59,294 nucleotides of DNA, taken from assembly GCA_045576795.1 (NCBI GenBank), contig JAZNHE010000109.1, positions 1 through 59,294 of the forward strand, read 5' to 3'. Made by a program: the position numbers and the translations under genes. The notes beneath the pieces were generated by a model. That model searched no databases. It was given only the letters and a program-made list of their open reading frames with translations, and had not been told where the DNA came from. This document shows positions 1 through 10,922 of the stretch, one piece after another (the first letter of the stretch is position 1; the number at the start of each line of letters is the position of its first letter). The DNA is from Eubacteriales bacterium (GTDB taxonomy: Bacteria; Bacillota; Clostridia; Oscillospirales; CAG-272).

Positions 1-486
1 TCGGGTGGCACGTCTTCCGGTGGCAATTCCGAAACAACGGAATATTTCATCGGTAATACCGAAACTAAGGTGTTCCATCTTCCTACGTGCAGTAATTTGC
101 CCGCGGCGTCCAAGCAGAACACGATGTATAACTATTGGTGGATAATTAACATTGCAGGTTATACCCCCTGTGGACGTTGCTTGAAGAATTACAGTGGTGG
201 CAGTAGTAGTGGAGTTACGTATATCGCTAACAAGGAGAGCAAGGTATATCATTTGTCTACTTGTAGTTATCTTCCTGCGGCATCCAAGCAGGAGGTTATC
301 ACAAATACTACCGGCTATACGCCTTGTGGACATTGCTTAAAGAGCACGTCTACCACCTATATTGCTAACAAGGAGAGCAAGGTGTATCACTTATCTACTT
401 GCAGCTATCTTCCTGCGGCATCCAAGCAGGAGGTTATCACAGATACTACCGGCTATACGCCTTGCGGACACTGCTTAAAAGGTTAA
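1..486 (+). CDS. C-terminal part (5'-truncated by window edge) of a protein ending in three tandem Ada-like metal-binding repeats
   Basis: Frame is open from base 1 (SGGTSSGGNSETTEYFIGNTETKVFHLPTC...). There are three copies of Y/F-I-x-N-x-E-S/T-K-V-F/Y-H-L-x-T-C...GYTPCGxC, resembling Ada_Zn_binding-like tails, joined by Ser/Gly/Thr linkers. Confidence 0.8.
   Translation, partial: SGGTSSGGNSETTEYFIGNTETKVFHLPTCSNLPAASKQNTMYNYWWIINIAGYTPCGRCLKNYSGGSSSGVTYIANKESKVYHLSTCSYLPAASKQEVITNTTGYTPCGHCLKSTSTTYIANKESKVYHLSTCSYLPAASKQEVITDTTGYTPCGHCLKG
220..480 (+). repeat. Intragenic direct repeat, two ~123-bp copies (220-342 and 358-480)
   Basis: Near-identical DNA TATATYGCTAACAAGGAGAGCAAGGT...GGACAYTGCTTAAA with a 138-bp period; differences are mostly at third codon positions. 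Confidence 0.9.
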
Positions 487-565
487 ATGTGTAAAAAAAT
501 ACAAAAGGGCGCACACGGGGTGCTTGCGGTAGAGCAATATAAAATTGAATATACCTACCGACAGG

Positions 566-604
566 AAAAGGACGAGAAATTGCTAAAATTTCTCGTCCTT
601 TTTT
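566..604 (+). terminator. Intrinsic terminator after the Ada-repeat gene
   Basis: AAAAGGACGAGAAATT / AATTTCTCGTCCTTTT perfect stem followed by a T-tract. Confidence 0.85.
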
Positions 605-617
605 CTTGTCAAGCACT

Positions 618-858
618 GCTTCTGTGTCCACAGAAGCTATTTTGATTTTGTCGATATGCCGTCGCTTTGTTCGGCTCGATATATTGCCTTGCGGCAAATT
701 CGATATGTTTTCGCTTCGCTCAAACTCGATATGATATAAATCCCGCTCACGAAGTGAGCATATCGAGTGCGGCAGCACATATCGAACGCGTTTGCGTATA
801 TCGAAAATCCGCATTAGCGGATTTATATCGATGCGTGCCTGCTCTATGGCAGGTACGC
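618..858. repeat. Chain of mini-hairpins separated by 4x TCGATAT then 4x ATATCGA (REP-like structured element, unidentified)
   Basis: TCGATAT at 651, 676, 700, 726 and ATATCGA at 760, 779, 798, 825. Every spacer contains a small stem-loop, and extra hairpins flank the array at 618-637 and 833-858. Confidence 0.8.
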
Positions 859-885
859 TACGTTGCGCCCTTTTTGTTATAAAAG

Positions 886-917
886 AAAAGCACTCTGCTA
901 AATTGGCAGAGTGCTTT
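886..917 (-). terminator. Terminator (probably bidirectional) downstream of the MBL hydrolase
   Basis: AAAGCACTCTGC-TAAATTG-GCAGAGTGCTTT with A/T tracts on both sides. Confidence 0.8.
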
Positions 918-961
918 ATAGAAATATCCTGATATCTTTGTACGCTAAGTAAATTAGGCGG

Positions 962-1768
962 TTAGAACTCAACCGCGCAACCGTCATAAGAGACGCACAT
1001 ATCGTATTTTTCCGATATATTTTCGATCAGATGATGTATCGGGTTGCCATTGTGTGAAAAATGATTGGCATATTTCAGCGTTTTTTCATTGACGGCACCT
1101 ATATCGGTGAGGCGCTTTATACAACGCAAAATATTCGGGAATCCCATATGACATTCCTCGTCTGGAATAGTGATATTCACGTAAGTGCAATCCAGGCTGA
1201 TGAGGTCGAATGTAATCTTATTTTTCTCGATATATGAGAACACCTCATCATAGAGATATCCTGTGTCGTGGGCGTAGAGAATAGTCTTATCACCTTGTAT
1301 TATATAGATGAAGGCCTCGCTCTCAAGCATATGTTTTGCAGGGAGCGGTGTGACACGGTATTTTCCTATAGTCACACTCTCAAATGCACGAAGAGGAGAG
1401 AGGTGAATGTTTTCATAGCACGGGATACTCTCCAGTGTTTTAGATGAACCGTACACTGTGAGCGTTGGTGTTTGCATATCGTGTGCATATACACTGTTAC
1501 GAAAAGCCAGCTCTGTGGGATATAGATGGTCAGGATGCGCATGCGTGAGGATAACGTGTGGGATTTTATCGCCCTCGATGCCATTGCTTAGAAAATGCGA
1601 ATAGGTATCTGCAGGTAAGTCAATGAGCAGGTCATCGTTTACAATTGCTTGTGATCTTGTTCTTATGTTTTTACCGCCAAGTCTACGTGCTTCATTACAA
1701 TATGCGCAATGACAGAATACGGCGGGGAATCCTTCAGCGGCTGCAGTGCCAAGATATGTAAGTTTCAT
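962..1768 (-). CDS. MBL-fold metallo-hydrolase, PhnP-like
   Basis: N-terminal LGTAAAEGFPAVFCHCAYC Zn motif, RTRSQ, THAHPDH (HxHxDH), HDTG and NHFSH; GAGAGG RBS. Confidence 0.85.
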   Translation of the reverse strand: MKLTYLGTAAAEGFPAVFCHCAYCNEARRLGGKNIRTRSQAIVNDDLLIDLPADTYSHFLSNGIEGDKIPHVILTHAHPDHLYPTELAFRNSVYAHDMQTPTLTVYGSSKTLESIPCYENIHLSPLRAFESVTIGKYRVTPLPAKHMLESEAFIYIIQGDKTILYAHDTGYLYDEVFSYIEKNKITFDLISLDCTYVNITIPDEECHMGFPNILRCIKRLTDIGAVNEKTLKYANHFSHNGNPIHHLIENISEKYDMCVSYDGCAVEF

Positions 1769-2521: not shown

Positions 2522-3775
2522 ATGCCGTTTGAAATTTTTCCATGGGGTGGTATGCGCCGCCGACACGGTGAGCGCGATGTGGAGACATCACTGCGTGGCA
2601 TCAAGGAATGCGGATTTACGGCATCCTGCTTTATCGAGCCGAAGGATATTCAGCTTTGCCGTGAACTTGGCCTTGATCCCATCGTATTTATCTATACCGA
2701 ACGCGAGGCTCCTGCCGGCACGCACAAGTTTTGGGAGTCAAGCGACGGTAAGCTTAATGCCACCGTCCTGATCCGCGACCGTGATATCACGAAGCAACAG
2801 CTTCAGTCCGAGGTTAAAACCGCACTTTCCGCCCTCGATGACGGACATTGCAAGGTCTATATTGTTGACGAGCCAGGTGCCGCATCCTTTGAACGCATCC
2901 GTTGGTATGCCGATGCTATCAAGGAGGTGCGTCAGGACGTAGAGGCATACGTCAACCTTTTTCCGAACTATGCCATCTGCGGTCAGCCCGATATGTCACA
3001 GCTGGAGGCGGAAACCTATGAGGAGTATCTCGATCGCTATTGCCGCATCCTGCCCGATATCCCTCTTTCTGTTGACAATTATCAGATTATTATGGGTATG
3101 GATAACCAAAAGGAAGAGCATCAGTACGGCTATTACCTCAACCTTATCCAGTGCCGTGAGGCTTGCGACAGGTACGGTGTTGAACTTCACTATGTTCTCA
3201 ACTCCAATCAGCTGCGAAAGTATCTAACCCCCCCTACAATGGAGAATCTGATGCTTCAGGCATTTACCGCCCTTGCGGCGGGATCTCGCTCTATCTCTTG
3301 GTTTACCTATTTCGCGTGGGGTTATTGCTACGCCCCCGTGGATGATAACGGCGAGTGCGATTTGCGTACACCTATATGGTATCTTTTGCGAGAGGTAAAC
3401 CGCCGTGCGCTTTCTATGGGTAATGAGCTGTACCGTATGCAATATCAAGGTATGTATTTTACGGATACACTTGGTATCGCCCGTGCAAAGAACGTTGACT
3501 TCTGTGACAAAATCTCTTCCTTCTCCTCCGATCTGCCGTGTATGATCGGTATGTACGAGGATGATGGCGAGCCGGTTGCCCTTGTTGTCAATATGAGCCT
3601 TGAACACTCCAACCGCATCTCTATTTCCTTCGGTGACGGACAAAATACCGTATGGAATACAGAGTATAATGAATATATTGCACCGATTCTCAATCCCGGT
3701 GATAATTCTGCCGAGTTCAGCCCGCTGTGGCTCGCCCCGGGCGATGCCGTCATCATCTGCCCCAAGAAGGCATAA
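2522..3775 (+). CDS. Hypothetical glycoside-hydrolase-like TIM-barrel protein
   Basis: AGGAGA RBS before ATG 2522. Motifs IKECGF, IVDEP, AYVNLFPNYA, LSVDNY and LAAGSRSISWFTY, plus a beta-rich C-terminal domain. C-ending codons look more frequent than in the core genes. Confidence 0.65.
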   Translation: MPFEIFPWGGMRRRHGERDVETSLRGIKECGFTASCFIEPKDIQLCRELGLDPIVFIYTEREAPAGTHKFWESSDGKLNATVLIRDRDITKQQLQSEVKTALSALDDGHCKVYIVDEPGAASFERIRWYADAIKEVRQDVEAYVNLFPNYAICGQPDMSQLEAETYEEYLDRYCRILPDIPLSVDNYQIIMGMDNQKEEHQYGYYLNLIQCREACDRYGVELHYVLNSNQLRKYLTPPTMENLMLQAFTALAAGSRSISWFTYFAWGYCYAPVDDNGECDLRTPIWYLLREVNRRALSMGNELYRMQYQGMYFTDTLGIARAKNVDFCDKISSFSSDLPCMIGMYEDDGEPVALVVNMSLEHSNRISISFGDGQNTVWNTEYNEYIAPILNPGDNSAEFSPLWLAPGDAVIICPKKA

Positions 3776-3793
3776 CTTCTACAAAAAGGCAAG

Positions 3794-3826
3794 AAAACCC
3801 CGCCCGATTCGTCAGGAGGGGTTTTT
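3794..3826 (+). terminator. Terminator after the GH-like gene
   Basis: AAAACCCC...GGGGTTTTT stem-loop. Confidence 0.7.
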
Positions 3827-4244
3827 AGTTATTTCTCATATTTCTCCCTTTTTTCCTTAAAGCCTTGATTTCGTTTTCCTTTTTGAGGGCAAATTTTCTT
3901 ATTTTGCGTTGAAATCTTCTTTTTTTTGCGGCGAAATCTTCTTTATTCGAATATTTAGAGCAAAACAATATGTTAAACGACAGACCGAATTTCTTCCAAA
4001 ATGACAAAAACTTTTGTCCTCGTTATTGGGCATAGGGGGGCAGGGCAAGGAAGACTTTCGACGGCGTATTTCTACCTATCTATTATATAGTGGGCAGAAG
4101 GCAGAAGAGGTCTTGGGAGTGTGGTCAGTCTTTCTTCCGTCGGTCGTTGGTCTTAAAGGTTCAAAAAGCTAGAGTTTTCAAGGCTTTTCTGGCTTTCGGT
4201 CGGGGCTTCCAGAGGTCTTCGGGCGGCGTCTTCAGGTCCAAAAA

Positions 4245-4378
4245 GCATACAAAAAAGGCACTCTGTCAACGCAGAGTGTCTTTTTGTTTTTAATGTGTTT
4301 TCCCTTGTTATAATACCGCCCTTAGAGGTCAAAAGATTTTGTCTTTTTCGTTCAGAATGCGGCTGTCTTATAACAATA
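4245..4378 (-). repeat. Copy B of the ~130-bp structured element, in the rpsR 3' region and ending in the operon terminator (4251-4285)
   Basis: TTGTTATAA/TTATAACAA closing stem, GAGGTCAAAAG core and GGCACTCTG/CAGAGTGTC terminator with a T-tract on the minus strand. Confidence 0.7.
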
Positions 4379-4386
4379 ATTTATAA

Positions 4387-4638
4387 TTAGTTGGATACGT
4401 AGGGAAGGAGCGCCATCTCACGAGCTCTCTTGATAGCTACGTTGAGCTGTCTCTGATGGAGAGCGCAGGTTCCGGATACGCGTCTGGGAAGGATCTTAGC
4501 TCTCTCGGAAATGAACTTTCTGAGCTTAGCTACGTCCTTGTAATCTATATCATTCACCTTGTCCTGGCAGAAGATACAAACCTTCTTTCTTCTGTGGGTA
4601 GGACGGAAGGAAGAACGAGTGGTTTCGTTTTTTTCCAT
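4387..4638 (-). CDS. rpsR: 30S ribosomal protein S18 (Zn-binding C+ type)
   Basis: RRKKVCIFC...IDYKD...[18 protein letters not shown]...AIKRAR...LLPY. Start moved to ATG 4638, after the GAAAGG RBS. Confidence 0.97.
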
Positions 4639-4717
4639 TTGTGTCACAAACCTTTCTAACTCACGATTTCTATATTGCATTCGTCACAGTGAGTCGCGTA
4701 ACGAACGGACAACGCCA

Positions 4718-5173
4718 TCAGAAGGGAAGGCTGTCGTCGTTGGGGATTTCCTCAAAACTAGCGCTTGAATCGCTGTTAAAGGAAGGGGTAGAATAAGCCT
4801 CGGGTGTATAAGTGCTTCCACCGGGTACGCCTGCGCCGTTAGTAGCAGGGCCAACGAATGATACTTCATCGGCAATAACCTCGGTAGCGTAGCGCTTCTG
4901 ACCCTGGTTATCTGTCCAGGTTCTTGTCTGCAGCTGTCCGCAAACAAGAATGGGATTACCCTTTTTAAAATAGCGGCTGACAAATTCAGCGCTCTGTCTC
5001 CATGTAACGATGTTAATGAAGTCTACGGTCTGCTGACCTTGTTCAGCACCTCTGCTGAAACGACGATTAACAGCGATAGAGAAAGAACATACTGACGTGC
5101 CGGTTGTTGTCTGTTTAAGCTCAGGATCAGCAGTCATGTTACCAACAAGGATAACCTTATTAAAACTTGCCAT
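4718..5173 (-). CDS. ssb: Single-stranded DNA-binding protein
   Basis: NKVILVGN..DPEL, FSIAVNR, acidic C-terminal DDSLPF; lies between rpsF and rpsR. Confidence 0.97.
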   Translation of the reverse strand: MASFNKVILVGNMTADPELKQTTTGTSVCSFSIAVNRRFSRGAEQGQQTVDFINIVTWRQSAEFVSRYFKKGNPILVCGQLQTRTWTDNQGQKRYATEVIADEVSFVGPATNGAGVPGGSTYTPEAYSTPSFNSDSSASFEEIPNDDSLPF

Positions 5174-5199
5174 ATCTCCGCCTCCAAATTCTATAGTAA

Positions 5200-5565
5200 T
5201 TACGCCTCGGTTGCTTCAACCTCAACGGACTCCTCAACTGCTATCTCTACAGCAGCCTCGGACTTAACTTCCTTCTCAACCTTAGCGAGAGTCATGTTAC
5301 GGATTACACCTTCGGTGATACCGAATACACGAGTAAGCTCGTGAGGGAAGTCGGGTTCGCTCTTAAAGGTAAGAAGTACGTAGTATCCTTCGGTGATGTA
5401 GTTGATAGGATATGCGAGTCTTCTCTTACCCCACTCGTTAACAGTAACATCGGTAGCGTTTTCGTTAACAAGGTTTACAAACTTCTCCTTAACAGCAGTG
5501 TACTCTTCTTCAGTGAAGTTACCGCTGATAGCAAAGAGAGTCTCGTAAGAACAAATCTTTTCCAT
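5200..5565 (-). CDS. rpsF: 30S ribosomal protein S6
   Basis: YETLF...EWGKRRLAYPI...EGYY motif; GGAGG RBS; rpsF-ssb-rpsR synteny. Confidence 0.96.
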   Translation of the reverse strand: MEKICSYETLFAISGNFTEEEYTAVKEKFVNLVNENATDVTVNEWGKRRLAYPINYITEGYYVLLTFKSEPDFPHELTRVFGITEGVIRNMTLAKVEKEVKSEAAVEIAVEESVEVEATEA

Positions 5566-5574
5566 CTGATTTAT

Positions 5575-5617
5575 ACCTCCTTCTGGTCATTAGGCCACCC
5601 CAAATGGTGGCAAGGAG
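5575..5617 (-). promoter_or_regulatory. S6:S18 ribosomal-protein leader (autoregulatory RNA)
   Basis: The minus strand reads CUCCUU-GCCACC-AUUUG-GGGUGGC-CUAAUGA-CCA-G-AAGGAG. The stem sequesters the rpsF SD and a CCR motif sits just before it, as in the known S6:S18 leader. Confidence 0.7.
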
Positions 5618-5645
5618 TCGGGCCCATTGCCCGAACTACCGTGGT

Positions 5646-5674
5646 ATTTTACCATAACTTTGGCAAAATGTCAA
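5646..5674 (-). promoter_or_regulatory. Sigma-A promoter of rpsF-ssb-rpsR
   Basis: TTGACA-17-TAAAAT with extended TG. Confidence 0.8.
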
Positions 5675-5709
5675 GTATTTTAGCGAAAAAAACATAAAAT
5701 ATCTTTGTA

Positions 5710-5738
5710 TTGACTTTATAAAGGTAATGTGTTAGAAT
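5710..5738 (+). promoter_or_regulatory. Sigma-A promoter of ispE (divergent from rpsF)
   Basis: TTGACT-17-TAGAAT with extended TG. Confidence 0.7.
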
Positions 5739-5786
5739 ATAGAAGTGCAAATTTAGGTTTACCGAGTAGAAAAAAAGGGGGGGCTT

Positions 5787-6668
5787 ATGACATCTGTAAA
5801 AGAACTTGCATACGCCAAGATAAATTTATACCTTGACGTTTTGTCAAAGCGTGATGACGGATTTCACGATATTAGGACTGTGATGCATACAGTCTCTCTT
5901 GCAGACGAGGTTACTGTGGATGTTGCACCCTCGGCAAGGCCATCGGTGAAAATAGTAAATTTCAGCAATGTAAAGCTTCCTGTGGATAATCGTAATCTTG
6001 CATACAGAGCTGCAGAGCTTTTTCTTGAGCGCACGATGATACAGGCGACTGTTACTATAACCCTGAAGAAGCATATACCCGTTGCAGGCGGACTCGCAGG
6101 CGGATCGTCGGATGCAGCGGCTACGCTGCGCGCTCTCAACCGTGCTTTTAAGAAGCCCGTTACGGATAAATACCTTTTATCTCTTGCGGCAGAGCTTGGC
6201 AGTGACGTGCCTTATTGTTTGCTTGGCGGTACAGCGCTGTGTGAGGGCAGAGGTGAGCTCATCACCCGCATTTCCACCGCGGTGTCGCTTCATCTTGTCA
6301 TAGTGGCACTTGACGAGCACGTTTCAACCCCTATGGCGTATAGTGCGCTCGATGAGGAATATTCGAATTTCAAATCGCCTCGTAACGATTCTTCAGGTGA
6401 GGCATTCGAGAATTTAATGCAATCGCTAAATAGCCGAAGTATGCCTAAAGGAGAATTGTTTAATATATTTGAAAACGTGATTTTCAAGACTTGTAATAAG
6501 GCAGAAATAGTGAAAAGCAGATTGCTTGAGCTTGGCGCAACCCACGCGCTTATGAGCGGAAGCGGCCCGACGGTATTTGGGATTTTTGAGAGTGACAGTC
6601 AAGCTAAGATGGCGGCTTCAGCACTTACAGCAGATGGAGCGACGGCATATTACGTCCATTCAATATAA
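5787..6668 (+). CDS. ispE: 4-diphosphocytidyl-2-C-methyl-D-erythritol kinase
   Basis: AYAKINLYL, KRDDGFH, IPVAGGLAGGSSDAA, LGSDVP, MSGSGPTVFG. Confidence 0.96.
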   Translation: MTSVKELAYAKINLYLDVLSKRDDGFHDIRTVMHTVSLADEVTVDVAPSARPSVKIVNFSNVKLPVDNRNLAYRAAELFLERTMIQATVTITLKKHIPVAGGLAGGSSDAAATLRALNRAFKKPVTDKYLLSLAAELGSDVPYCLLGGTALCEGRGELITRISTAVSLHLVIVALDEHVSTPMAYSALDEEYSNFKSPRNDSSGEAFENLMQSLNSRSMPKGELFNIFENVIFKTCNKAEIVKSRLLELGATHALMSGSGPTVFGIFESDSQAKMAASALTADGATAYYVHSI

Positions 6669-6683
6669 CTTCAGTGAGGGAAA

Positions 6684-7658
6684 ATGAGTAAGAAAACAGA
6701 TTTGACAAAATTCTTTACAAGCCCGATAATTGTTATTCTCGGTGCTATGTTGTGCTGTGCGCTTTGGGGCAGTGCAACACCGTTTATAAAGATGGGCTAC
6801 AAGGTGATGTTTGAGAATGCAAAGCCTGATGTACCGTCTACAATTCTCTTTGCAGGCATACGCTTCGCACTTGCAGGATTTATCACGATTGCTATTTACA
6901 GTATTGCACGCCGCAAGCTTCTTTTACCCAAGCGTTCAAGCTGTGGCAAGATTGCAATAGTAGCCGCATTCCAGACGGTAATACAGTATTTCTTCTTCTA
7001 CATAGGACTTGCCAACACATCGGGAGCAAAGGGCACTATTATTAGCGGTTCATCATCATTCTTCGCAATCTTCATATCCAGCCTTATATTCAGACAGGAG
7101 AAGCTAACTGTCAAGAAGGTGGTTGCATGTGTAGTAGGATTTGCAGGAATTATTGCAGTTAATCTTAACGGACTTGATTTCAATATGAATCTTCTCGGTG
7201 ACGGATTTGTTTTGTTTTCCGCGATGTCGCTGGCTTTCTCATCGGTGCTGATAAAGAAGTTTTCAAAGGATGAGGACCCTGTTGTTATAAGTGGTTATCA
7301 GTTCATACTCGGCGGATTGGTTATGGTGATAGTCGGACTTATTGCCGGTGGCAAAATAGACTACGTTGATGCAAAGGGCATAGCAATTCTCGTGTATCTT
7401 TCATTCCTGTCTGCGATTGCATACGCGCTTTGGGGTATGCTGCTTAAATTCAATCCCGTGTCTAAGGTTACGATATTCAGCTTTATGACACCGGTATTCG
7501 GCGTTATACTCACCAAGCTTATGCTTCCCGAGGAAAGCACGGTAAAGCTTATCAATCTTCTCATATCGCTCATATTGGTCTGTCTTGGAGTATTTATGCT
7601 TAACTATAATAAGCAACCCAAGACCCCCGAGCTGCCGAATGATAAAGAAAGTAAATAG
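6684..7658 (+). CDS. DMT/EamA-family transporter
   Basis: About 10 hydrophobic helices in two EamA repeats (LWGS, RF.LAG, E..T.KK, PVFG). Confidence 0.88.
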   Translation: MSKKTDLTKFFTSPIIVILGAMLCCALWGSATPFIKMGYKVMFENAKPDVPSTILFAGIRFALAGFITIAIYSIARRKLLLPKRSSCGKIAIVAAFQTVIQYFFFYIGLANTSGAKGTIISGSSSFFAIFISSLIFRQEKLTVKKVVACVVGFAGIIAVNLNGLDFNMNLLGDGFVLFSAMSLAFSSVLIKKFSKDEDPVVISGYQFILGGLVMVIVGLIAGGKIDYVDAKGIAILVYLSFLSAIAYALWGMLLKFNPVSKVTIFSFMTPVFGVILTKLMLPEESTVKLINLLISLILVCLGVFMLNYNKQPKTPELPNDKESK

Positions 7659-7684
7659 AGTCGGTTTGTAGTTTTATATTAAAA

Positions 7685-7737
7685 GAGAGCAGATTTACAG
7701 GATGCATTTCTTGTAAGACTGCTCTCCTTATCTTTTT
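7685..7737 (+). terminator. Probable terminator after the DMT gene
   Basis: GAGAGCAG...CTGCTCTC stem with a T-rich tail. Confidence 0.55.
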
Positions 7738-7789
7738 GGATGTATTAAATGCATTTGTGCGTGCTCGCAATATTTTCTCGCGTATTTAA

Positions 7790-7818
7790 TTGACAAACAA
7801 CGATAAATGTGGTATAAT
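7790..7818 (+). promoter_or_regulatory. Consensus sigma-A promoter for the TerB-N/ATPase/helicase operon
   Basis: TTGACA-17-TATAAT, a perfect consensus, with extended TG. Confidence 0.85.
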
Positions 7819-7917
7819 ATCTCGTTAAGAGAAGAAGTGACGGATGGCGTGATTTTTACTAACGCCTTTTCGTCGTTAAATTTCGTTTTTACTTTGTCGG
7901 AGGGGGGCGGTATAAGT

Positions 7918-9561
7918 ATGGATAATAATAAATCCGAGCGAGACGATTTTTGGAATATCGATAAGCTCGTACCTAAAAAAACATCTAAATTATCGCCGTT
8001 TGCAACTCGCCCCGCGGTAAGAGATTATACGGTTTCAGAGCCGGAAAAACGTGGGCCTCAGAACAATGTTGATAATAACGAGGGAAAACTGACGTTTTCC
8101 GATATGAAGGGATTTTCCAATAGTGAGGACGTCACGTATTATCCCGAGAATACTCTTATAAAGAGTATAACCGTTAAAAGATACAAAGAAAAATACGATT
8201 TTTATGACAGCTTTCGCAGAGCGGCATTGATGTATTTTGAGTGTATCGGCAGCAAGTGCGAATTTGCACAGTACTATTCGTATGTGCCGCAGTATTCACA
8301 GCTTACAAAGCCGCAGAGAGATTACTATTTTTATTGGCGCACAGAGCTTCGCTCGGGGAGATATATAAAGACAGATTACTCATATCTGTACCTTTACGTA
8401 TATGAGATAATAAATCTTCCGGACAAGCTGCCGCCCGAGGAGGGAATACGTCTTCTATGCAGAGTCTGGCGAGCATACCGTAAGGACTTGCCGAGGATAG
8501 ATTTGTACTTCTCTTCATGGGTTAGAGATTATTGCCTTGTTCACAATCTCCCATGCCCGTATGACGCGCTGCGCGACTTTCTGTTTGACATTATTCGCAT
8601 CTCAGATTTCAAGGAATATTATTTTACCGAAATAGGCACGGACAGTCGTAACGGCGTATGGACCTTACTCGCATATTTTTCTGATTATGATTGGCAATCA
8701 GGACTCCTTTCCGTTATGAAGAAGTATAACGGTACTGAGGAGCTTGATGAGAAACGAGAAATATACAAAAATATTCTCGAGGGAGCAATGCGAACTATTT
8801 TGCCCACCGTTTGGAAATACTGTCTTTCATATAGGACGGAAGAGAATCTCGCTATTATCTCGCGCAATGCTTTCCGTAACTCTCTATGCACCCATAGTGT
8901 TAAATCGCACCTTGAGATTAAGTATTATCCGTTAGATAAGGTCGCGGATTTGCGCTTAGGAATTACCGCCGCGGTAAGGTATACAGAGAACAAGCTGAGG
9001 GCAGTATTCGGTGTCAAGAGCAGATTATCCGTCAAGGATATTCCGACGCCATACAGAGAGCTTATAGATTGTTATTTTGATGCCTTGATTGAGAAGAACA
9101 AGCGTATAGCCGCAAAGAAGAATCAGCCGGAGTACGAAAGACTTTACGATGCTCCGAGCGAGGAACTATCCTTTATCGGTGCAGATGAGATAGAGCGCAT
9201 TTCCTGGGATACCACTGCGCGCCTTTGCGAAAACAATGAAGATATTGAAAGTGAAAGTATAAACTCGGTAGATGCTGAAAATTATTCTGCCGCAGAATAT
9301 TTACAAGAAAATCCAAATACCGATTGCGCCGTTTCGAATATCAACTACGGTCTTGATAAAGAGGAGCTCATTTTCATCGCATCACTGCTTGAGGGTGTTA
9401 AGACAAGCGATATTTCCTCTGTCGGTATGGTTGAGCATATCAATGAGGCGTTTGCAGATGGCTTTGGTGACGTTGTAATAGAAGAAACAGACAAAGGATT
9501 TGAGATTATTGAAGATTATGTGGAGGATGTTACAGAATGGCTCAAGAAACTAATGAAATAA
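7918..9561 (+). CDS. TerB N-terminal/TerB C-terminal domain protein (Shango SngA-like)
   Basis: FAQYYSYVPQYSQLT..QRDYYFYWR...DYSYLYLYVYEIIN is typical of TerB_N, and C-terminal VEHINEAF.D.FGDVVIE...EIIEDY is typical of TerB_C. Start set at ATG 7918, after GGAGG. Confidence 0.8.
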   Translation: MDNNKSERDDFWNIDKLVPKKTSKLSPFATRPAVRDYTVSEPEKRGPQNNVDNNEGKLTFSDMKGFSNSEDVTYYPENTLIKSITVKRYKEKYDFYDSFRRAALMYFECIGSKCEFAQYYSYVPQYSQLTKPQRDYYFYWRTELRSGRYIKTDYSYLYLYVYEIINLPDKLPPEEGIRLLCRVWRAYRKDLPRIDLYFSSWVRDYCLVHNLPCPYDALRDFLFDIIRISDFKEYYFTEIGTDSRNGVWTLLAYFSDYDWQSGLLSVMKKYNGTEELDEKREIYKNILEGAMRTILPTVWKYCLSYRTEENLAIISRNAFRNSLCTHSVKSHLEIKYYPLDKVADLRLGITAAVRYTENKLRAVFGVKSRLSVKDIPTPYRELIDCYFDALIEKNKRIAAKKNQPEYERLYDAPSEELSFIGADEIERISWDTTARLCENNEDIESESINSVDAENYSAAEYLQENPNTDCAVSNINYGLDKEELIFIASLLEGVKTSDISSVGMVEHINEAFADGFGDVVIEETDKGFEIIEDYVEDVTEWLKKLMK

Positions 9562-10922
9562 AAGTACCTAAGAGAATATTAAACACACTACTGTCATCCT
9601 TGACCGCCGGTGTTGTGCCGCGTATAGGCGCACCGTATATCGCTATAGGCAGACGTGAGGAGATTGCATCCTTGCTCGATAATCTTGATGACGTAAGAGA
9701 TGGCGGAGCCGCGTGCAGATTTCTTATAGGAAGATACGGAAGTGGTAAGAGCTTTTTGATCCAGCTTATACGCGGTTATGCTCTCGATCGCGGATTTATT
9801 TCCGCTGATGCCGATCTTTCACCGGAGCGTAGATTGACGGGCGGCAACGGTGCCGGACTTGCTACGTACAGAGAATTAATGACAAATATGGCAACTAAAG
9901 CCAATCCCGACGGCGGTGCCTTACCCACCATTTTGTCGAGGCACTTTACAGCACTGAGTACAGAGCTTATTTCCGAAGGAATTATGCCTGATGACGCGCG
10001 CTTTACAACCGAGCTTAAGAAAAAGGTATTTATGACGCTCTCCGAGCTTGAGGGGGATGTTGGCGGATTCGACTTTGCCCGTGTGCTTACGGAATATTAC
10101 CTTGCCTCGATAGAGGACGACAGCGATAAAAAGAGCAGTTGCTTACGGTGGCTAAGAGGAGAGTTTTCCACTAAGACGGAGGCAAAGAATGCCCTCGGAT
10201 TTTCGGTAAGCTGCATAATAGACGATGATAACTGGTACAACTTCATCAAGCTGTTTTCGTCGCTATCCGTTACACTCGGATACTCGGGACTCGTTTTGTT
10301 TATTGATGAATGTGTAAATCTATACAAGATTCCCAACAGAATATCGCGAGAGGCGAATTATGAAAAGCTACTTGCAATATTTAATGACACGTTGCAGGGC
10401 AAGGCGAAAAATCTTGCGGTTATATTCGGTGGCACTCCGCAATTTCTTGAGGATACCAGGCGCGGACTTTTCAGCTATGATGCCTTGCGTAGCAGACTTG
10501 CCGATTCCAAGTATTCGGATATGGGGTACAAGAATTTGTCATCTCCTGTTATCAGGCTGCCTCGTCTTTCCGATAATGAACTGCTCGCTCTCGTAAAACG
10601 ATTGACCAAGCTTTATCAACAGCGTGAGGGCACAGCTCTGCCTCCTGTGACGGATGAGCAGATAGAGAAATTTGTTAGACTCGCATTGTCAAAGGCGGGA
10701 GCGGAAGAGCTTATAACTCCTCGAGAGATTATAAGAGATTTCCTAACTCTACTCAATATATTACGTGATAACGAGTCTGCCAACTTCGATGAGCTGATTG
10801 GGGACGTAGCCTTTACCTCCGAGCAAGGTGCGATTGACGCGCATTCGGATGAATCACTCGGTAATGCAAAACAAGGGGCACAGTTGTCCAAAAAAGTAAC
10901 TTTATTCGATATTGATATATAA
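9537..10922 (+). CDS. DUF2791/BrxD-like P-loop ATPase (Shango SngB-like)
   Basis: LSSL.AGVVPRIG..YIAIGR..EI, Walker A GRYGSGKS, ADLSPERRL, Walker B LFIDE, RRGLFSYDALRSRL, TPREIIRDF; overlaps the upstream gene. Confidence 0.88.
   Translation: MAQETNEIKVPKRILNTLLSSLTAGVVPRIGAPYIAIGRREEIASLLDNLDDVRDGGAACRFLIGRYGSGKSFLIQLIRGYALDRGFISADADLSPERRLTGGNGAGLATYRELMTNMATKANPDGGALPTILSRHFTALSTELISEGIMPDDARFTTELKKKVFMTLSELEGDVGGFDFARVLTEYYLASIEDDSDKKSSCLRWLRGEFSTKTEAKNALGFSVSCIIDDDNWYNFIKLFSSLSVTLGYSGLVLFIDECVNLYKIPNRISREANYEKLLAIFNDTLQGKAKNLAVIFGGTPQFLEDTRRGLFSYDALRSRLADSKYSDMGYKNLSSPVIRLPRLSDNELLALVKRLTKLYQQREGTALPPVTDEQIEKFVRLALSKAGAEELITPREIIRDFLTLLNILRDNESANFDELIGDVAFTSEQGAIDAHSDESLGNAKQGAQLSKKVTLFDIDI

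Follow-up and report, generated by a model that had tools for sequence, protein, structure and literature searches.

The window analysed here is a stretch of DNA of 59 kb (59,294 nucleotides) from an Eubacteriales bacterium. On its plus strand, the heptamer TCGATAT occurs four times (at 651, 676, 700 and 726) and is followed by four occurrences of its reverse complement ATATCGA (at 760, 779, 798 and 825), i.e., two inverted arrays of a short (6–9 nt) unit in a 4 + 4 layout. An earlier note, made from the letters alone, had described this arrangement, and we confirmed all eight tags. They are not contiguous head-to-tail heptamers; they stand 19–34 bases apart, with one hairpin in each gap, and the seven spacer stem-loops written out in that note are all present, as are the two hairpins that it had seen on either side of the array, at 618–637 and 833–858 (Table 1). 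Counting both strands, the window contains 26 heptamers where 13.5 are expected (sd 3.4), a number reached by none of 100 shuffles, and eight of these 26 are packed into 181 bases (651–831). The 271-nt stretch 610–880 gave folding z-scores of −6.2 and −6.8 for its two strands, equalled by none of 200 shuffles.

Two terminator-like hairpins frame the array, one at 570–605 and a second one on the minus strand at 917–887, to the right of the copy. The hairpin at 570–605 is part of the repeated unit; it is retained in the orthologous copy L166, where changes in the stem compensate each other, and the depth of metagenome contigs climbs from bin 528 on, i.e., to the left of it. Placement between convergent terminators, which had been put forward for the element, holds for the window copy and not for the family, only 8 of the 32 arrays that are flanked by ORFs left and right being located between convergent genes (19 lie between tandem and 5 between divergent genes). 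A promoter scan of 400–1050 returned no promoter-like site within or facing the array. Beside this copy there is neither a PF05635 gene nor a visible remnant of one, and we therefore call it an orphan. As to the tail, a comparable T-run is seen by eye 10–20 nt past the foot hairpin in other copies.

Table 1. Features of the window copy of the array.
Feature	Position	Strand	Remarks
Terminator-like hairpin GGACGAGAAAT...ATTTCTCGTCC	570..605	.	T-run on + strand, TTTTCC on − strand; read from sequence
Left flanking hairpin GCTTCTGTG-TC-CACAGAAGC	618..637	.	8 pairs; kept in L166
Left half: TCGATAT tags 651/676/700/726 with spacer hairpins 658–675, 683–699, 707–725	651..732	−	
Centre: GATATAAATCC (733–743), then hairpin GCTCAC-GAA-GTGAGC (745–759)	733..759	+	733–743 is the 5' strand of a long-range helix
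Right half: ATATCGA tags 760/779/798/825 with spacer hairpins 767–778, 786–797, 805–824	760..831	+	
Right foot hairpin GCGTGCCTGC-loop-GCAGGTACGC	833..858	.	consensus TGCG..CGC TA; stem covaries among copies
3' tail with C-rich T-run at its end (GCGCCCTTTTTG)	859..875	+	read by eye

The element had been proposed to be a dispersed, non-coding structured repeat, and it is indeed multi-copy and lacks an enzyme gene of its own in the vicinity. The pattern and BLASTN searches that had been suggested recovered at least six copies in the genome carrying the window (1.94 Mb in 140 contigs, 82% complete) and more in its relatives, so the array is not single-copy. A triple-tag pattern (three tags with 8–30 bases between them) gave 13 matches on 5 contigs of this genome, and the reversed control pattern gave none. 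By BLASTN, copies were found on C69, C81, C87, C89 and C52 at 69–85% identity; the C69 copy is 74% identical over 198 bases and the C52 copy is degenerate. The copies adjoin unrelated housekeeping genes. Within a single genome they are old and diverged and do not reflect recent bursts. The number of modules varies from copy to copy, the joints always falling at whole tags.

The pattern is present in 11 of the 61 genomes of relatives, the own genome included (among other species of the genus, 8 of 36; among other families sampled, 2 of 24). In an order-wide sample, it was found in 30 of 301 genomes (own included) and 11 of 30 families, against one genome for the control pattern, and the highest count was 29 overlapping triple matches in one genome. 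A scan of the genomes of 185,579 species returned at least 121 loci, and 34 true hairpin arrays (defined by three or more hairpin spacers) occur among the matches listed. These 34 all belong to gut MAGs labelled Clostridia, Oscillospiraceae, Acutalibacteraceae, Eubacteriales, Faecousia or Christensenella-like; the matches from other phyla, among those listed, are devoid of hairpins. Among 119 viral loci, three are true arrays, including one located between terminase and portal genes. In animal-gut runs, the summed depth of the assembled contigs (Logan) is 20–500 over 528–855 versus 0–5 on the flanking genes. Because the contigs pile up on this interval, we conclude that the array family is abundant in animal-gut runs and that the repeated unit includes the hairpins at 570–605 and 618–637. 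In many cases, loose contig ends at the array lead into other DNA. Look-alike arrays are numerous in DNA runs from animal guts and in two RNA libraries, and no joint that skips the window element cleanly was found among the Logan contigs. Contigs of two metatranscriptome runs also cover 528–855, these contigs saying nothing on transcription, ends or strand.

The structure of the array was examined in an alignment of 18 canonical copies, in which we tested the outer pairs of four spacer hairpins and a helix joining 733–743 with 819–829. In this alignment, 96.6% of the cells pair, and both sides change in 16 of the 26 pairs. None of 500 shuffles reached the observed covariation score, and sliding the partner by 1–3 columns lowered the pairing to 17–48%. 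The 11-bp long-range helix covaries as well, with 12 copies having T-A and 6 having G-C at one of its pairs, and in the short natural variants L186 and L185 it is realised as a plain hairpin. The stems covary and the heptamers are fixed, which bears out the earlier observation that structure is kept while spacer sequence varies. It had also been suggested that opposite tags pair to build a long trunk. RNAalifold does draw this trunk on the alignment (tag 2 with 7, 3 with 6 and 4 with 5), through pairs that are invariant and thus neither support nor refute it. Several observations speak against a strict reading of a symmetric trunk: the numbers of tags are equal for both motifs in only 22 of 48 arrays; in one lineage, TCGATAT stands opposite ATATCGC throughout, giving a T.C mismatch in every unit; and tag 8 is shared, since it also belongs to the covarying helix with the centre. 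No Rfam covariance model scored below an E-value of 0.3 inside the array (window 400–1100), and a scan at gathering thresholds of eight loci with copies gave a tRNA only, in agreement with the claim that the element matches no named family.

The repeat unit consists of a 7-base tag and a hairpin of 9–25 bases, the tag reading ATATCGA on the folding strand. We collected 232 distinct hairpin spacers, each read on the strand whose flanking tags are ATATCGA. Read in this way, 69 loops are GNA and 52 are GNNA, while TNNC is found once and TNC never, i.e., 121 loops versus 1 for the complement. The loop is closed by a C-G pair in 180 of the 232 spacers and in 114 of the 121 GNA/GNNA loops, and the first base of the stem is G (109), A (95) or T (28), and never C. 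The sequences GCGNAGC or GCGNNAGC are present in 45 spacers, against 2 for their complement. Triloops predominate, and the GNNA loops depart from GNRA in around one third of cases (GTCA, GTTA). On the ATATCGA strand, the internal mismatches are tandem G.A/A.G, and G.T wobbles exceed A.C by 7 to 2 in the left halves. When 26 canonical copies are read on the top strand, their left halves display 24 TN(N)C and no GN(N)A among 59 loops, and their right halves 24 GN(N)A and one TN(N)C among 45. Because the loop rule holds in both halves, the preferred strand is the bottom one on the left and the top one on the right, and the halves are mirror images. In the window copy, the left half (651–732) preferentially folds on the minus strand, in the ATATCGA sense, with GNA-type loops and tandem G.A (e.g., GCGAAGC in 707–725); the right half (760–831) preferentially folds on the plus strand, where 819–829 forms the 3' strand of the long-range helix. 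The units are thus strand-specific, with strand features that are mirrored between the two halves. This flip of the preferred loop strand is not what selection on one folded strand would give; the hairpins are selected on one strand per arm. The single-stranded action that had been envisaged for the array is plausible, loops, tandem G.A mismatches and G.T wobbles all preferring one strand. The order TCGATAT-then-ATATCGA is found in 37 of 48 arrays and the opposite one in 9; we also considered a divergent origin, with mini-hairpins on lagging-strand templates and a bubble opening at the centre, and dropped it on account of these 9 arrays.

DNA mini-hairpins of the types GCGNAGC and GCGNNAGC are described (PMC13037366) as extraordinarily stable, nuclease-resistant and poorly bound by SSB, and they occur at single-strand priming origins. 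The array spacers display the same loop and closing-pair signature, C-GNA-G or C-GNNA-G. These mini-hairpins are, however, a structural motif and no genetic element, and the natural sites known for them are priming origins of phages and plasmids, where they occur as single hairpins and do not form dispersed arrays (PMC13037366). The acting form of the arrays may be DNA or RNA; the loop statistics favour DNA, triloops being dominant and GTTA and GTCA being tolerated.

At least some of the arrays are transcribed, as shown by promoters read by eye and by leaders. Sigma-70-like boxes (by eye) are located just upstream of the arrays in L351 (TTGAAA-17-TATAAT), L126 (TTGCAA-17-TATAAT) and L349 (TTGCGC-17-TAGAAT), and several genes, in L349, L187 and L351, are preceded by a 5' leader in which a half array runs into GAGA, a ribosome-binding site and the ATG. 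Such an organisation would fit a structured RNA, a leader or 3'-UTR module serving as cis stabiliser, processing site or insulator and constituting a new RNA motif, and the tandem G.A mismatches and GNRA-like loops suit RNA too. The contigs of the two metatranscriptome runs over 528–855 point the same way only in so far as contigs, which cannot show transcription, can do so. We consider this explanation improbable: the strand preference flips, so that any transcript has half of its hairpins in the unfavoured sense; the RNA sense of the leaders is itself the unfavoured one and carries UNC loops; the window copy has no promoter-like site and is shielded by terminators on both sides; and there is no Rfam match.

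The genes that accompany the arrays were surveyed by an all-against-all comparison of 393 ORFs from 55 loci. Only two proteins are recurrent in this set, the PF05635 (23S_rRNA_IVP) four-helix-bundle protein at six loci and rlmD at four, where the array begins at the last codons of the gene. No transposase, nuclease or recombinase recurs among these 393 ORFs, and the copies flanking a transposase or nuclease gene that the first description had suggested looking for were thus not encountered as a recurrent arrangement at the 55 loci. PF05635 genes lie beside arrays at C89 (in the own genome), L033, L138, L148, L156 and L162 and, with L351, at 7 of about 55 loci; they are also linked to TCGATAT-type arms at L373, L368 and L366. 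At L373, four ATATCGA-hairpin units precede the gene and four TCGATAT-hairpin units follow it. At L351 (G322), a dyad is followed by a ribosome-binding site, the PF05635 gene and, finally, the first half array repeated as a 121-bp copy. We further examined the 21 PF05635 genes of five array-rich genomes with a strict count, requiring an exact 6- or 7-mer at least three times and its complement at least three times. Inverted arrays accompany 15 of these 21 genes, 10 of them being bracketed and 5 preceded by an upstream dyad; the other six fail the strict count, some of them showing degenerate repeats by eye. TCGATAT is the tag at 4 of the 21. The tags vary from gene to gene, and some arms are contiguous heptamers, others tag-plus-hairpin arrays. 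In the own genome, all three PF05635 genes lie beside arrays, of the TCGATAT type at C89, with the tag GATGAAATC and hairpins at C128, and as 4 + 4 contiguous heptamers at C19. Within the order covered by this analysis, the TCGATAT array family is linked to PF05635 genes, and also to small gene sets lying between direct copies of the array.

The ORF-bearing intervening sequence of 23S rRNA is presented in PMC4990558 as a selfish element that is excised by RNase III. The helix-45 intervening sequence of Coxiella burnetii, with its S23p ORF, is likewise a small selfish element with a gene for a PF05635-type four-helix bundle, and RNase III acts on the stem formed by its complementary arms (PMC4990558); in the array family, the PF05635 gene is found between ATATCGA/TCGATAT arms (L373, L351). 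Unlike the rRNA intervening sequences, the arrays are located outside rRNA, their arms are arrays of tags and mini-hairpins with no plain stem, and the window copy is gene-less; a likeness to the RNase III substrate would hold by analogy. A second relationship is with the intergenic heptamers of Xanthomonas (GGGAATC; Rehm et al. 2015), which mostly come in four units, with 70–75 convergent opposite-strand pairs per genome (PMC4692102). Like the window array, they are intergenic tandem 7-base units, mostly four, often with one array per strand; however, they are contiguous, G-rich and quadruplex-forming, whereas the units of the window family are each separated by a variable hairpin. That paper contains no mention of S23p or of intervening sequences.

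The arrays also resemble the tagged REPs and BIMEs (GTAG/CGTC; Di Nocera et al. 2013), which are extragenic and mosaic, carry a short unpaired tag beside a palindrome, can fold into larger structures when units are in opposite orientation, and in some classes have no dedicated transposase (PMC3733652). REP palindromes have a family consensus sequence, and conservation in the arrays is limited to the tag, loop type and closing pair; the REP tag has 4 nt (GTAG or CGTC) and the array tag 7 (ATATCGA/TCGATAT); REPs and BIMEs reach about 100 copies or more per genome, against 6 loci here and at most 29 triple matches elsewhere; and REP hosts are Proteobacteria, while the hosts of the arrays are Clostridia and the arrays have no link to a RAYT. 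Tagged REPs and BIMEs are reportedly also the subject of Nunvar et al. (2010; PMC2817692).

In a first alternative, the arrays would be an independent REP/BIME-like host repeat acting as single-stranded DNA, and four-helix-bundle cassettes and other small genes would insert at them or recombine through them. Its units would be nuclease-resistant, SSB-poor mini-hairpins on whichever strand is exposed, and the tags would merely be slippage or recombination points. We find this independent-repeat explanation rather unlikely, with some observations in its favour: the match of the loop and closing-pair signature to the DNA mini-hairpins (PMC13037366), the non-GNRA GNNA loops (about one third) and the dominance of triloops, which suit DNA over RNA, the majority of arrays that have no PF05635 gene, the variation of module number by whole tags, and the precedent of tagged palindromes without dedicated transposase, the CGTC REPs (PMC3733652). 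The hairpin sequences are nonetheless not conserved within the family, unlike those of REPs, and the copies are few (6 in the own genome, a maximum of about 29 triple matches in one genome). Moreover, the presence of inverted arrays, with many different tags, at 15 of the 21 PF05635 genes argues for a link with the gene and not for chance landing.

The earlier note had proposed instead a REPIN-like element moved by a RAYT/IS200-type HUH transposase encoded elsewhere in the genome. The usual substrate of HUH enzymes is a hairpin with a short conserved tag alongside, a form that the array unit shares, and the own genome does encode Y1 transposases. However, Y1_Tnp is encoded by 3 of 9 array-bearing genomes and by 9 of 28 that lack arrays, and it is missing from G017, which is 95% complete and has 13 triple matches. 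In addition, the IS200 ends of the own genome carry a different hairpin and no TCGATAT, no transposase recurs beside the arrays, and the copies within a genome are old and diverged. We hence regard an HUH mover of this kind as highly improbable.

PF05635 is not the only cargo associated with the arrays. In six loci, direct array copies of 82–310 bp and 93–100% identity surround small gene sets, such as an HTH gene with an orphan ORF (L184), an AAA_14/DUF4143 gene (L185), an HTH gene (L350) or an orphan ORF of 1262 residues (L189); L349 (G176) holds a run of small ORFs with about 7 junction units in 6.4 kb. These layouts bring to mind the attC sites of integrons, in which the structure is conserved and the sequence free, inverse 7-mer boxes are present, a single strand acts in a strand-specific way, and gene cassettes are bounded. 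By analogy, the folded single strand of the array could be the substrate of a site-specific recombinase moving small circular cassettes. The direct-repeat layout (D-X-D) around accessory gene sets at six loci, with the junction units of L349, would fit such a substrate. So would the 121-bp duplication of L351, which brackets a half array and the gene as a Campbell-type integration would yield, the conserved structure with free sequence and 7-mers in both orientations, and the location of one array subfamily at the 3' end of rlmD. However, an attC site is a single imperfect hairpin beside an intI platform, whereas the window array has eight tags, seven hairpins and no integrase. No recombinase gene recurs beside the arrays (55 loci), homologous recombination between dispersed repeats could produce the same layouts, and no circular junction or empty site was seen. 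We therefore hold that an attC-like site is quite improbable here. A fuller version, to which we also grant only a small chance, would be a Clostridia system with arms read as single-stranded DNA, circular cassettes (four-helix-bundle, HTH, AAA_14 ATPase or orphan ORFs) and crossover at the heptamers, driven by an unknown recombinase or by the four-helix-bundle protein itself.

Our preferred reading, of which we are about half convinced, is that the window array (651–831, with flanks from about 528 to 875) is the orphan, i.e., gene-less, arm dyad of a small selfish PF05635 cassette of uncultured gut Clostridia. At related loci, the arms bracket a PF05635 gene, or the same dyad directly precedes its ribosome-binding site, and the window copy would be the arms without the cargo. 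The arms would behave like the terminal inverted repeats of the cassette, and a strand asymmetry mirrored between the halves is the pattern expected of a mobile unit with such ends. In a single-stranded state, the hairpins would snap shut, either as DNA, while the element moves or is replicated, or as RNA, by promoter read-through. Because the tags of the two arms are complementary, a branched stem like that of the rRNA intervening sequences is possible in a single strand: the heptamers of the opposite arms would then pair, in a manner comparable to the stem cut by RNase III in the 23S rRNA intervening sequences, and this branched stem would insulate the insertion from the neighbouring genes. 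At the window locus, where the two neighbouring genes are convergent, the dyad probably does nothing beyond spacing them as a structured stretch that is shielded against transcription.

This cassette-arm reading meets several difficulties. Removing the gene from a cassette would not by itself yield the orphan dyad, because the bracketed form (ATATCGA, gene, TCGATAT) has the opposite order to 37 of the 48 arrays. The orphan dyad corresponds better to the "upstream dyad" arrangement, or to the junction within a circular or tandem form, than to a cassette after gene loss. The PF05635 gene is found at just 7 of about 55 arrays, and the arrays could be independent repeats in which cassettes land. 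We found no empty site, target duplication or circular junction, the relatives of the flanking proteins being at most 63% identical and not syntenic. More precisely, among 60 genomes of the genus, identity does not exceed 63% for orthologues of the right-hand gene and 37% for those of the AraC-type neighbour of the C69 copy, neither being syntenic, and metagenome relatives of the flanking protein reach at most 62%. As for the terminal inverted repeats of MITEs, the window arms are inverted, and no clear target-site duplication is visible by eye; T-rich stretches are alike on both sides in some copies (C87, L042), with no consistent duplicate (by eye). To our knowledge, no mobilising enzyme has been described.

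In the open-access papers searched, we found no description of this tag-hairpin element, including among the stem-loop repeats of Ruminococcaceae/Oscillospiraceae. It is known in part, through the rRNA intervening sequences, the heptamer repeat pairs and the tagged palindromes (PMC3733652). What is new is that every heptamer is interleaved with a variable mini-hairpin, and that the strand signature is strictly mirrored. We know of no function or mode of spread established over decades for PF05635 proteins and rRNA intervening sequences, and of no explanation so far for intergenic heptamer repeats. The array family joins PF05635 genes and heptamer repeats in gut Clostridia. The selection of loops on one strand, with the signature of ultra-stable DNA mini-hairpins, gives a means of asking in which form (DNA or RNA) the element works and which strand is involved, and the tags are clean markers for crossover points, circles and empty sites in metagenomes. 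Finally, the arrays are abundant in animal-gut metagenomes, where they likely break assemblies and mislead the finders of ncRNA or CRISPR-like repeats.

PF05635, the four-helix-bundle family of 23S rRNA intervening sequences (IVS), recurs beside tag arrays other than TCGATAT in the genome of the window. On contig C19, inverted contiguous heptamers, four on each side (TTGAAAR / YTTTCAA), bracket a PF05635 gene, which is itself flanked on one side by a partial copy of tRNA-Leu(CAG) (i.e., 37 bases of the 5′ half, stopping at the anticodon) and on the other side by the complete tRNA gene. This arrangement looks like an IVS-type cassette inserted into a tRNA gene. On contig C128, a dyad (i.e., two inverted half arrays together) is built on a different tag, GATGAAATC then GATTTCATC, and lies immediately upstream of a PF05635 gene broken into two frames; both come after a tRNA/tmRNA-like 3′ end, and another dyad of the same kind is found around 1.1 kb further downstream.

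In another sampled genome (locus L349), a string of small ORFs shares a common upstream layout, with the same promoter-like box, mini-hairpin and half array repeated ahead of every ORF. About seven of these junction units are present within 6.4 kb, and the locus therefore looks like a gene-cassette array.

Regarding the surroundings of the TCGATAT arrays, the gene upstream of the window array terminates in three tandem repeats, each approximately 45 residues long, that carry a Cys-rich zinc-binding motif of the Ada type (YHL.TCSYLPAASKQ...GYTPCG.CLK; Pfam Ada_Zn_binding, E 2.7e-6). The copies on C69 and C87 of the same genome share around 200 additional bases left of the array, containing three covarying hairpins and a terminator-like two-way hairpin; this stretch matched no Rfam family at gathering score.

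The IS200-type element of this genome has a left-end hairpin that is unrelated to the TCGATAT arrays. Its four Y1 transposase gene pieces are all located at contig ends, and the element is a multi-copy insertion sequence that causes assembly breaks.

Positions of the features discussed, within the named locus or contig
Feature	Location	Positions
Upstream gene, C-terminal part	window, + strand	1-486
Small-ORF run, mainly orphans (one DUF4279, one DUF7878)	L349 (G176:C100)	3480-9933
PF05635 cassette at tRNA-Leu, parts	L175 (C19:59178-61140)	1385-1421, 1449-1478, 1501-1809, 1834-1862, 1870-1954
Tag-plus-hairpin dyads	L177 (C128:18490-21669)	about 1199-1321, 2815-2926
Y1 transposase gene pieces	C122	1-900
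	C57, C82, C50	ends
Left extension	L022	7990-8178
	L023	C87:25440-25640
Third-kind arrays (tag plus short hairpins)	L185 (G038:C46)	4893-5000, 6480-6700
Variant tag combinations	L036/L184 (G038:C25)	4277-4500, 5359-5580
	L365 (G322:C113)	

Finally, arrays of a third kind, with the tag ATGAATTG, directly adjoin TCGATAT arrays in locus L185; thus, multiple tag families coexist and abut. In one lineage, the left half carries TCGATAT and the right half ATATCGC, and a separate array has GCGATAT together with ATATCGC. These combinations suggest that recombination between the arms of sister tag families is possible.
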